From the sequence record PZ379545.1: DNA of 52,467 bases; one strand, given 5' to 3'. The notes below the pieces were generated by a model, which was given only the letters and a program-made list of their open reading frames with translations, did not search any database and had not been told where the DNA came from. Made by a program: the position numbers and the translations under genes. Shown piece after piece: positions 3,665 through 10,710 of this stretch. This DNA comes from a phage. The stretch's first letter is position 1. Every line of letters starts with the position of its first letter.

Positions 3665-3712
3665 CGTCTATTTGGCAGATGAATTGGTTGCAATTAAGCA
3701 TGTCCATTTATC

Positions 3713-5268: not shown

Positions 5269-5441
5269 ACGACCAGCAATTCAACACATTTCTGCAACAA
5301 ATGAATCATACTGAATTAATGAATCATTTGGAAGGCAAGACTAAACAGCAACAATATGTTCCTCGTGCTCGTGATAAGTATATGCCAACCATTATTGCAT
5401 GTGTTGGATTCCTGATTGTTCTCTACTTCCTGGTGAAATAA
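5265..5441 (+). CDS. Hypothetical small membrane protein with C-terminal hydrophobic helix
   Basis: ATG at 5265 after GGAG; C-terminus PTIIACVGFLIVLYFLVK. Confidence 0.5.
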   Translation: MNDQQFNTFLQQMNHTELMNHLEGKTKQQQYVPRARDKYMPTIIACVGFLIVLYFLVK

Positions 5442-5538
5442 ATGGATATTGTAAAGAAATTTGTATTCTGTATTCTGATGTTCCCACTTGTGTTCCTTGT
5501 TGTTGGCGCATTCATGTACTTTTAATATTGGAGTTATT

Positions 5539-5802
5539 ATGGCTACTAAAACTGGCATGATGCTCGTACCACGCCGTAATAACTCTTTGGCTGGTTTCGA
5601 GCCGTATAAGATTTACCGTGTTATATCTGGAACTGGTGAAGCAAACCTTTCAGAAGTCGCCTTGAAGATGGGCCGTATGGTCCATTCCGAAATGTCTTGT
5701 AACGTAGTTGATGATGAAGGTAAAATCCGATTTGTAACATTGGATTTCTTTCGCGAATTTAAACTTGAATCAGAATTAGGTGTTTTATACCATGAAATTT
5801 AA
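5539..5802 (+). CDS. Hypothetical early protein
   Basis: ATG at 5539 after TTGGAG RBS; 87 aa. Confidence 0.55.
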   Translation: MATKTGMMLVPRRNNSLAGFEPYKIYRVISGTGEANLSEVALKMGRMVHSEMSCNVVDDEGKIRFVTLDFFREFKLESELGVLYHEI

Positions 5803-6019
5803 ATGTGTTGCTTCAACCAAAGACTACGTTCCAGTTGGCTTAATCATTGAAGGTGAAGCTATTTCGCCTTTGGAATTTAAAGTGACTAAATCTGCTGAAA
5901 GCATTTCTCCAGCATTCCGTAAAGGTGCTGTCGTTCCTATGAATGGTGCATTCTGGACATGGCAGCGTGACCATCGTGCAGAATTTGCAGATATTTGTGA
6001 GCAAGGTGCATTACAATGA
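5792..6019 (+). CDS. Early paralog family member 1 (MKFKCV...WTW)
   Basis: Shares N-terminal KFKC(V/I), YVP.G.IIEGE and C-terminal P(M/L)NG..WTW motifs with the next two genes. Confidence 0.6.
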   Translation: MKFKCVASTKDYVPVGLIIEGEAISPLEFKVTKSAESISPAFRKGAVVPMNGAFWTWQRDHRAEFADICEQGALQ

Positions 6020-6246
6020 CAAAGTTTATATGTATAAAATCCTCTTCTTCATCCGAATATGCTCCTAAAGTTGGAGATGTGATTGAAGGAGAACTTGTAC
6101 AAATACAGCGAAAACATGGAATCGACACTCGAATAATTGTTTCGAATGTTGGGGACAGAGTGGCTGCCAATGGCAGACCCTACTGGAGCATTGGTGAAAG
6201 TGTCCCATTAAACGGAAGTATTTGGACTTGGAAAGAGGTTAAATAA
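6016..6246 (+). CDS. Early paralog family member 2 (MTKFICI...WTWKEVK)
   Basis: Same motif set as 5792-6019; ATGA overlap. Confidence 0.6.
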   Translation: MTKFICIKSSSSSEYAPKVGDVIEGELVQIQRKHGIDTRIIVSNVGDRVAANGRPYWSIGESVPLNGSIWTWKEVK

Positions 6247-6312
6247 TTTCCTCAACCACTTTTGTAGTGAGAGTGGTTGCTGAATATTATTAATTAACTT
6301 GGAGTATATGAA

Positions 6313-6798
6313 ATGGCCAAATTCAAATGTGTAAAGGGTTCTGAATACGTTCCAGAAGGAACAATTCTTGAGGGTGTCCAGAGAAAGGGCAGACTCATAC
6401 TTACCAAGCCGTCCGAGCTTCTTGGAATTGACGGAAATCCGAGATTCAGTGAAGGCGATGACCTGCCAATGGAAGGTGTTTTATGGACTTGGGAAGAGAT
6501 TAAAGAGAAAGTGAAACAACGTACTCGTTTACATCGTGACCCAGCCACAGGTCGCATGTTGCCAGCATATTTGAAAGTTGGTGATTTGGTTTACACTCGT
6601 GACTTTGCTTTTGATATTTGTCCTAGCAAAGTTTATGTTGTTCTTGCCACCAGCTTGTCTAAGCCTAAAGTGCTGTTTGGTGCACTTGAGCCAATTCAAT
6701 TAACCGGAACTCAATTTGTCATTAAAGATGAATCTGGTTGCAATCGCACCTTCAGTCTTGAAGGCGGATTATCTAAGTGGGAGAAAGTGAAGAAATGA
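6313..6798 (+). CDS. Early paralog family member 3 with about 85 aa C-terminal extension
   Basis: N-terminal 75 aa match the family motifs (MAKFKCV...LWTWEEIKEK); 161 aa in total. Confidence 0.65.
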   Translation: MAKFKCVKGSEYVPEGTILEGVQRKGRLILTKPSELLGIDGNPRFSEGDDLPMEGVLWTWEEIKEKVKQRTRLHRDPATGRMLPAYLKVGDLVYTRDFAFDICPSKVYVVLATSLSKPKVLFGALEPIQLTGTQFVIKDESGCNRTFSLEGGLSKWEKVKK

Positions 6799-7082
6799 AC
6801 AAGAATTCAATTTTGCGTTATGTTGGTAAAACAAATTACAACTTTACCAACGGTAAGAAGTATAAAATCGTCGCAGGTCGTGGTGACGGAGTTCCTCGCA
6901 ACAACGGTACACTCGGTGCGTATATTCAATCTCCTTTGGGTTTTGTCGTTAATGACGATAACCGTAATTTATCTTATCGTACATTCTCCGATAATTGGGA
7001 ACTTGTGAAAGATTCTGGTGAAGTTAGTTGGTATAAACCTGAATCAAACATGGACCCAATTCCTGTATCGAAGGTGATGTGA
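6795..7082 (+). CDS. Hypothetical early protein
   Basis: ATG at 6795 overlapping the upstream stop; 95 aa. Confidence 0.55.
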   Translation: MNKNSILRYVGKTNYNFTNGKKYKIVAGRGDGVPRNNGTLGAYIQSPLGFVVNDDNRNLSYRTFSDNWELVKDSGEVSWYKPESNMDPIPVSKVM

Positions 7083-7242
7083 GGATTGAATATTAAATAC
7101 CTAATACTGACACTTACTATTAGCGTTGTTATACTTACGATTGTTATAGGCTTTGCCAACCTGCTGCTATTACAAGCAGGAATATAAACTGGCGCGTTAA
7201 ATTAACAAGGAGCATTCATTGAGTGTTCCTGATTAATCTAAC

Positions 7243-7260
7243 ATTAGTTGGATGTGAGAG
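7243..7260 (+). promoter_or_regulatory. Candidate phage-type promoter motif (ATTAGTTGGATGTGAGAG)
   Basis: Motif match in the intergenic region upstream of the SSB-tip gene. Confidence 0.45.
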
Positions 7261-7332
7261 AGACAAAGCTATTCCGTGGTTAGCAATGTCACTGTAACTT
7301 AAACTGTAATTAACTTAATAGAGAAATTAATC

Positions 7333-7710
7333 ATGGCACAATATAACGATTTAAACACTGGCATCATTGGTGCAAACGGCTACAAGAAGCAAGACACTCA
7401 TCCTGATGTTCGTGGCCGCATTAACGTAGAGGGTATCTGGTATTGGGTATCTGGTTGGACCAAAAAGGCTGGTGACAATGAATTTACTTCATTGGCACTG
7501 ACCATCATGACTCAGGAACAAGTTGATGAAATGATGCGTAAGCGTGAAGAGAAAGCTAAAGCCAAAGCTCAACCTCAAGCTGCCGCTCAACAGCAACAGC
7601 CACGCCAGCAACCTTCTGCACAACAGCAAGCACCTGTTCAGCAACAGACGCAGAATAGTAACTACAACCCGAACGAGCCGAAAGACTTCGACGACGACAT
7701 TCCGTTCTAA
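7333..7710 (+). CDS. Small protein with Gln/Ala-rich linker and SSB-type C-terminal tip DFDDDIPF
   Basis: 125 aa: about 75-aa N-terminal domain, low-complexity QQQ/AAQ linker, last eight residues identical to the E. coli SSB C-terminal tip as I recall it. Confidence 0.7.
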   Translation: MAQYNDLNTGIIGANGYKKQDTHPDVRGRINVEGIWYWVSGWTKKAGDNEFTSLALTIMTQEQVDEMMRKREEKAKAKAQPQAAAQQQQPRQQPSAQQQAPVQQQTQNSNYNPNEPKDFDDDIPF

Positions 7711-9904: not shown

Positions 9905-10171
9905 ATGAATTATCAAGACATACCAGCAGAGATTCAGCATCACTATGCCCGTATAGATAAGGCAAAGAAAGAATTGCATCAAATGTCTGCGCTGAATCTA
10001 AGCGATGAAGTTCGATTAAATGCTTATATGGAGGTTGGAGAAACTTCCATGAAAATTAGCTTCAATGAGAAAGAAGCTATTATGCGGACGCTTATTAAAA
10101 ATAGCGAGGAAAGATTAGTAAAACTTCGTAAAATACATAGTGCATTAACTGACACAATGGAGAGCATATGA
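9905..10171 (+). CDS. Hypothetical protein
   Basis: ATG at 9905 with GGAG 6 nt upstream; an alternative ATG lies at 9893. Confidence 0.5.
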
Positions 10172-10710
10172 GCACCATTATCCAAGCAATAGAAAATCTT
10201 AAGTCCTGGCGTAGAGATGAAACCTTATTGGTTCGTTTCTACACAGGCGAAACTAATTCTGAATTTGTAGATGCGTGGATTGATGGCCTGTCTTGGCGTC
10301 ACTATGATTTCGACATGCGGGATTATTTGCATGAAGAATACGGCATCGAATACCCAAAAGATGGGACTTATGACATACTTGAATCAAGTGAAGCAGATGT
10401 AACAGAAGTTTGCTTTGCCAATGGCCTGTTCAGCATTCGCAAGTATGATAAGTTCAATGAGCTGCTTGTTGACACCGATTTGGATGTAATTCTTGCAGCA
10501 TTCCGCAGTGGTGATATTGATATTTTCACTGTGAATGATTTGAACGACATGTTCATTACTCGTTGCGATTCAATTGCAGACTACTTCAAGCAAAGTGAAG
10601 CACTGGATATTCCAGACCGCCTTGCACCATATATTGATTGGGAAGCAATTGTGAAAGACTTCGGCAGCGACTATATCTTCTCTGAAGGAGTATTATTCCT
10701 AAATGTCTGA
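10168..10710 (+). CDS. Hypothetical acidic protein
   Basis: 180-aa ORF with ATGA coupling. Confidence 0.6.

Follow-up and report, generated by a model that had tools for sequence, protein, structure and literature searches.

What are the three small genes that lie in tandem at positions 5792-6798 of phage sequence record PZ379545.1, and what might they do? A sequence-only reading of this stretch (52,467 bp in full, hereafter the window) had described them as a paralog family of the early region, the third with an extra domain, and had pointed to host takeover or anti-defence as a role. The window represents all, or nearly all, of the genome of an E. coli phage, a Carltongylesvirus-like myophage (Chaseviridae, Cleopatravirinae). 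We find that the three genes, here A, B and C, share a domain that is predicted to form a small β-barrel, and that the third copy is joined through a single base to a separate gene, here CC. We favour, with some reserve, a reading in which the barrel is a binding module used before replication.

Three paralogs of one small phage family

The genes and the two parts of C are:

5792-6019, + strand: paralog A, 75 amino acids (phrog_18786, E 9.5e-33)
6016-6246, + strand: paralog B, 76 amino acids (phrog_18786, E 3.7e-19); its start overlaps the A stop (ATGA)
6313-6798, + strand: open reading frame C, 161 amino acids, the third paralog plus fused CC
6313-6510, + strand: third paralog, C codons 1-66 (phrog_18786, E 9.9e-18 over residues 1-65; phrog_24403, E 1e-14)
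6511-6798, + strand: CC, the C-terminal 95 amino acids of C (residues 67-161; phrog_21002)

The coordinates of all three open reading frames (ORFs) are exactly those of the sequence-only reading, and the motifs that it named are present: MKFKCV, MTKFICI and MAKFKCV at the N-termini of A, B and C, respectively; the YVP.G.IIEGE-like segments DYVPVGLIIEGE, EYAPKVGDVIEGE and EYVPEGTILEGV; and PMNGAFWTW, PLNGSIWTW and PMEGVLWTW as the C-terminal motif. When each product was compared by BLASTP with all 616 stop-to-stop segments from the six frames of the window, A and C matched at E = 1.3e-8, A and B at E = 2e-6, and B and C at E = 1.4e-12; hhalign relates A to B with 97% probability (E = 6e-11). 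A, B and residues 1-66 of C all match phrog_18786 (full-length) and phrog_24403, PHROG families without an assigned function. The similarity is far past chance by BLASTP, hhalign, the PHROG profiles and a hidden Markov model (HMM) of the family, and the claim of a tandem three-gene family therefore stands: sequence comparison identifies A, B and C(1-66) as paralogs of one small, phage-only family. No fourth copy is present among the 616 segments by BLASTP, and the family HMM finds A, B and C only.

For the shared domain of ~65 residues, prediction gives a five-stranded SH3-like β-barrel with high confidence. From an alignment of 62 sequences, AlphaFold2 models C(1-66) with a predicted local distance difference test (pLDDT) score of 95.2 and β strands at residues 2-8, 18-24, 27-30, 50-52 and 59-62, which gives the five antiparallel strands within ~60 residues that define small SH3-like β-barrels. 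This fold class includes SH3, KOW, the PhnA C-terminal domain, OapB and PsaE. Foldseek found no match in the PDB at E below 1, BFVD returned uncharacterised family members alone, and searches of Pfam, NCBIfam, PADLOC and PDB profiles gave no relevant or credible match. There is no Pfam SH3 match at E up to 1, with 6-19% identity to SH3 domains proper, and the Pfam KOW motif (NusG, Spt5, L24) is not found in the domain. As modelled, then, the fold class is clear and is accompanied by no functional relative.

An exhaustive HMM search of 1.84 billion representative proteins recovered 56 at E up to 1e-3, nearly all of 59-186 amino acids, which puts the family at about 56 clusters at 50% identity. 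One hit, P0115, a cadherin-like repeat protein of 2926 amino acids that scores through 12 weak repeats, is considered spurious. Members occur in Carltongylesvirus, Faunusvirus, Gamaleyavirus (N4-like), Veterinaerplatzvirus (T1-like), and Erwinia and Xanthomonas jumbo phages. The domain is typically N-terminal, running from M-x-K-F-x-C onward, and a few members have N-terminal extensions. What follows it varies: an acidic helical tail in the Gamaleyavirus members, an 80-residue helical module that is also found alone (P0095-P0098), a Cys4 ribbon-like segment in P0119, and DUF7279 (PF23945, above Pfam's threshold) in P0111 and P0114; P0088, P0105 and P0106 have two barrel domains in tandem. DUF7279 also occurs as a gene, gp03, adjoining family member gp02 in Gamaleyavirus U1G, and in the cluster of the relative L010; no DUF7279-like sequence is present in any frame of the window.

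U1G gp02 shares its N-terminal domain with the third copy (41-46% identity), is likewise an early-region gene and falls in the B/C subfamily, but it is 119 amino acids long and has the acidic helical tail where C has the 95-residue CC module. The Gamaleyavirus gene lies between homologs of N4 gp1 and gp2, in the first early operon. The idea that U1G gp02 replaces N4 gp2, the RNAPII cofactor, was rejected: the family HMM does not match N4 gp2, and U1G retains a true gp2 homolog at 1237-1710. The family is already catalogued in PHROGs yet uncharacterised; what the window contributes is a rare third copy together with an in-frame fusion that is unique and possibly artefactual.

The third copy and its one-base junction with CC

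The extra domain of the third gene, put at 85 amino acids in the sequence-only reading, proves to be 95 amino acids long and to be a separate gene joined in frame. Residues 73-161 of C match positions 1-92 of the phrog_21002 profile (full-length) at E 1.7e-44. Megablast with positions 5400-7400 as query matches 46 related records with identities of 80-95%; phiEcoM-GJ1, ST32, Mangalitsa, MLP1 and the Yersinia PYps phages are among them. A stand-alone CC gene of 95-96 codons is present in Mangalitsa, MLP1, Ecp_YSF, BSBP01, phiEcoM-GJ1 and L010, and in the first five of these it directly follows B. By their PHROG families (phrog_18786/24403 and phrog_21002), A, B and CC correspond to phiEcoM-GJ1 gp10, gp11 and gp12. 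In the phage collection, relatives have two copies of the barrel gene or one, never three, and all keep gp12 as a gene of its own; a fused third copy is seen only in the window and an unfused one in a single Logan sample.

Two features mark how the third copy is placed:

6308-6334, + strand: remnant of the original CC start (ATG AAA) at the left insertion junction, opening an 8-codon out-of-frame mini-ORF
6508-6513, + strand: fusion junction, AAA GTG in the window and AAG TGA in L010

Relative to Mangalitsa, MLP1, BSBP01 and Ecp_YSF, the window has an insertion of ~200 bp exactly at the CC start codon. The left junction reads TATGAAA and the right junction GTGAAA, so that TGAAA is repeated. 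The inserted DNA is found in none of the 46 related records, each of which covers just 45% of a query spanning 6240-6600. In Logan assembly SRR29657913 the insert is a stand-alone gene of 66 codons (P0038), 91% identical to the third copy, and this locus is also present in an NCBI third-party-annotation record, a contig of 52,547 bp. The P0038 gene ends GAG AAG TGA and overlaps the GTG start of a CC gene of 96 codons. At the corresponding place the window has one extra A (6508-6510) and reads GAG AAA GTG; the stop is thereby removed, and the third copy and CC are read as one protein of 161 amino acids. The junction was determined from a pairwise DNA alignment with L010, the relative with the unfused third copy, from the L010 ORFs and from the junction strings, and GTG at 6511-6513 is the CC start codon in L010. 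Between the third copy and P0038 there are 7 non-synonymous and 4 synonymous changes, a ratio of about 0.46.

No fusion protein occurs among 5.8 billion protein clusters, and no record has the exact 161-residue protein; IMG/VR, JGI metagenomes and GTDB genomes, scanned with single proteins and DNA patterns, likewise yielded no further third copies and no fusion. Because it appears in no other database searched, the fusion is either a recent mutation or a one-base sequencing error. We take the second possibility seriously while leaning somewhat away from it. In that case the 161-codon gene would be an artefact of sequencing or assembly, and the true genes would be a 66-codon paralog and a 95-codon CC overlapping by GTGA. 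The sole other genome with a third copy does keep the genes separate, the junction differs by one A in a short A run, the fusion is absent from all of the collections just listed, and in every relative examined CC is separate and strongly constrained, with a ratio of non-synonymous to synonymous substitution (dN/dS) of 0.06. A run of two to three A residues is, however, not a typical error hot-spot, both halves are intact and in frame, and the domain is commonly fused to downstream modules elsewhere in the family, so that a real fusion is plausible.

The junction resembles the loss of an overlapping stop and start (ATGA or GTGA), in which coupled genes with a GTGA overlap become one ORF by a one-base indel. 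There is no sign of programmed frameshifting: no classical X XXY YYZ slippery heptamer was noticed on reading through the junction, although no formal test was made, and what sets this one genome apart is a difference fixed in its DNA, or else an error. The one-base fusion would be a concrete case of overlapping small phage genes becoming a two-module protein; it is also a warning to annotators, as the 161-codon ORF should be checked against reads.

CC itself is modelled poorly by AlphaFold2 (pLDDT 47). Two candidate relationships for it were discarded. Its apparent membership of the barrel family came from MAFFT, which mis-aligned the family onto CC, and hhalign gives this a probability of 1.9%; a phmmer match to RPA14 (OB fold) at E 0.03 became worse with a profile (0.62) and is taken as chance.

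Conservation, selection and possible roles

The genes that flank the cluster are:

5539-5802, + strand: gene U, 87 amino acids (phrog_18131), directly upstream of A and overlapping it by 11 nt
6795-7082, + strand: gene D, 95 amino acids (phrog_18403), its start overlapping the C stop (ATGA)

All 46 related phage records have paralog A at 90% identity or more, and 259 member sequences make up its 90% cluster. B orthologs are just 51-89% identical; B is absent in TH24 and apparently also in Bp10, whose only match to the third-copy query is at the A position. The number of family genes per phage is from 1 to 3. Among more distant genomes of Chaseviridae type, the order U, barrel gene, CC, D and single-stranded DNA-binding protein (SSB) gene is kept in Erwinia phage Faunus, and in L014 likewise except for D, with identities of 57-59% for U, 39-43% for CC and 47% for D (Faunus). 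There is one barrel gene in Faunus and in L013; L014 has a two-domain protein whose second domain is A-type. A U homolog stands immediately before the family gene in L013 and L014, and one gene intervenes in Faunus. L013 has a U homolog (73% identical), its single barrel gene and then remote CC- and D-like genes.

Nei-Gojobori estimates from nine genomes give dN/dS values of 0.09 for U, 0.14 for A, 0.19 for B, 0.06 for CC and 0.19 for D; A, B and the third copy all evolve under purifying selection. In the central loop region of B the constraint is looser, and the ratio of non-synonymous to synonymous differences (pN/pS) there is 0.53. The synonymous divergence (dS) of B is 1.27, as against 0.28 in the adjacent A, and the diversity of B would accordingly reflect old alleles moved by recombination. 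Pairwise scores place A with the Faunus copy and the second L014 domain; a second group comprises the B alleles together with the third copy and gp02 of Gamaleyavirus. Taken together with conservation and synteny, this grouping makes A probably the ancestral, core Chaseviridae-type copy, and B and the third copy accessory members of a horizontally shared subfamily.

We judge it somewhat probable, taken as a whole, that the barrel encoded by these paralogs is a binding (adaptor) module employed before replication. The cluster consists of translationally coupled small genes, U-A-B, a hairpin and C-D, between the RNA polymerase and SSB genes. Within it A is probably ancestral; B represents a second subfamily with anciently diverged, exchanged alleles that is missing from some phages; and the third copy is a rare B/Gamaleyavirus-like member inserted at the CC start codon between TGAAA repeats. 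An invariant strand 1 (K-F-x-C), strand 5 (W-x-W) and Gly/Pro turns would build the barrel scaffold, and specificity would come from the variable β2-β3 hairpin and the long loop at 31-49. The interchangeable C-terminal modules found elsewhere in the family (DUF7279, the Cys4 ribbon-like segment, acidic helical tails, a second barrel) are recurrent and differ from one another, and they lead us to infer that the barrel docks variable partners onto a common target in the pre-replicative phase. That target may be a protein of the host or a co-conserved neighbour (U, CC or D). The fusion seen here would then be a snapshot of how a two-module protein originates, or else the one-base error discussed above. 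Two points weigh against this account: every homolog is annotated "hypothetical", and the proteins are near-neutral in charge by our own count of the sequences.

Two other roles have to be set beside the adaptor reading. The proposal of the sequence-only reading, that this is an anti-defence or host-takeover family in which each barrel neutralises a host protein and tandem copies widen the range of targets, we regard as possible but doubtful for the family as a whole. It agrees with the small size of the proteins, their pre-replicative region, the copy number of 1 to 3 and the dispensability of B in TH24, and with the deeply diverged B alleles, whose central loops are under relaxed or diversifying pressure; the B/C subfamily also occurs in unrelated enterobacterial phage families, among them Gamaleyavirus, Veterinaerplatzvirus and jumbo phages, with the Gamaleyavirus gene placed in a first early operon. 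However, none of the Pfam, NCBIfam, PADLOC, PDB and BFVD searches showed similarity to a characterised inhibitor or defence-related model, overall dN/dS is well below 1, and the divergence of B is matched by its high dS, which argues for alleles that are old and have recombined, not for demonstrated positive selection. Paralog A, conserved in 46 of 46 relatives and syntenic across genera, is unlike the genes of typical anti-defence islands. The proposal therefore holds in part: copy-number variation, the absence of B from some phages, its allelic divergence, and sharing across phage families fit an arms-race role of B and the third copy. For these two a part in host takeover or anti-defence is possible, whereas such a role agrees poorly with the strong conservation of A.

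That the proteins are nucleic-acid-binding regulators, with a KOW-, Sm- or OapB-type barrel modulating phage transcription, translation or replication, we consider decidedly improbable. In its favour, DUF7279, to which the family is fused or adjacent, has a strongly basic conserved segment, KPTKKQIRKLRR, and the family's genes lie beside ssDNA-binding-protein genes in Chaseviridae and Gamaleyavirus; the near-neutral charge of the proteins favours neither nucleic-acid binding nor DNA mimicry. Literature searches on the PHROG numbers and on DUF7279 found nothing, and those on Chaseviridae early genes found nothing about the genes of the cluster.

A bolder version of the adaptor reading, to which we attach little probability, makes the barrel a plug-and-play targeting domain of enterobacterial phages that docks onto one conserved hub protein, of host or phage, and delivers interchangeable C-terminal effectors (DUF7279, zinc-ribbon-like segments, acidic tails, CC). 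If that were true, an arms race would have given B and the third copies their role as variants that differ in specificity, and the fused C would be a Rosetta-stone fusion, the barrel family and CC acting on the same target. As the family is conserved in Chaseviridae and recurs in N4-like, T1-like and jumbo phages, a role for it would annotate a recurrent early gene in several groups of therapeutic coliphages. Beyond these points, this is simply a further small-gene family of a phage early region that awaits characterisation.

Transcriptional setting and neighbouring genes

The signals and genes that frame the cluster are:

292 (weak), 2805, 3711, 7241, 11149 and 13142, + strand: matches to the phage-promoter consensus ACATTAGTTGGATGTGAA
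3711-3728, + strand: promoter match (by consensus only), putative start of the transcription unit with the cluster
7241-7258, + strand: next promoter match (1 mismatch), preceding the SSB gene, where the unit putatively ends
6242-6291, + strand: conserved RNA hairpin in the B-C spacer, core stem 6253-6279 (-17.7 kcal/mol; z = -3.4 against shuffles)
7333-7710: SSB gene (phrog_7364), adjoining the string of small genes on its downstream side

A single-subunit RNA polymerase is encoded by the ORF at 362-2488 (Pfam RNA_pol, E 2.4e-19). The promoter consensus was built from the phage promoters annotated in phiEcoM-GJ1, and the window has six matches to it where 0.08 are expected by chance; the match at 7241 is the "putative phage promoter 3" of phiEcoM-GJ1. 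The six matches outline putative phage-RNA-polymerase transcription units of the left arm, and ~14 small + strand genes, the cluster among them, lie between those at 3711 and 7241. Judging from the consensus matches, the label "early" is better put as pre-replicative and probably phage-RNA-polymerase dependent. The sequence-only reading had presented the genes as diversified, tandem small early proteins, and its placement survives with that change of wording: the tandem family is real and lies in the pre-replicative region, downstream of the RNA polymerase gene and the 3711 match and upstream of the SSB gene. A is not an accessory gene, and to that extent the functional interpretation is not supported.

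The hairpin between B and C is kept in relatives, with + strand substitutions that preserve G-U pairing, and the record of vB_EcoM_SA91KD has a terminator annotated at its position. Partial termination or processing at this site could divide U-A-B from C-D.

Several relatives differ around the cluster. L010 has an HNH-endonuclease-like gene of 142 codons (2040-2468) inserted between U and A, and BSBP01 (L004) has a Cys-rich gene of 63 codons (1393-1584) inserted at the same place; in L010 (2704-2985) the B stop is mutated from TAA to GAA, which extends B to 93 amino acids. The block is a hot spot of small indels and gene gain. In Faunus (L015, MH191398.1) the barrel member at ~2447-2653 (HMM E 3e-16, 39% identical to A) is unannotated in GenBank and overlaps part of a coding sequence at 2086-2484. 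A weak Macro-domain protein of 146 amino acids (L013, 2240-2680) is encoded directly upstream of the L013 U homolog and single barrel gene.

U, CC and D may themselves be paralogs, members of a second and very distant family. Common to all three are a K-x-Y-x-V...G segment and a hydrophobic-DD-x-G hairpin (NVVDDEGKIRF, FVIKDESGCNR and FVVNDDNRNLS). The PHROG cross-matches of U and D are reciprocal and weak (E about 0.08), and hhalign relates U to CC with 53% probability (E 1.4e-4) when divergent homologs are added (L013 3940-4489; L014 4403-4690).

The window SSB ends in DFDDDIPF. The SSB of E. coli has the same acidic tip, which recruits host replication and repair proteins, and given this shared tip the phage SSB may compete for, or use, host SSB partners. 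Further along, the 180-codon ORF at 10168-10710 occupies the position of phiEcoM-GJ1 gp22, which carries an anti-restriction annotation; its ArdA match is below threshold (E 0.0077, with 17 bits where the cut-off is 27). One Carltongylesvirus-like record, PP952070.1 (Staphylococcus phage Pel53), is about 85-93% identical to the window in this region and is labelled a Staphylococcus hyicus phage, a host label that we consider doubtful.
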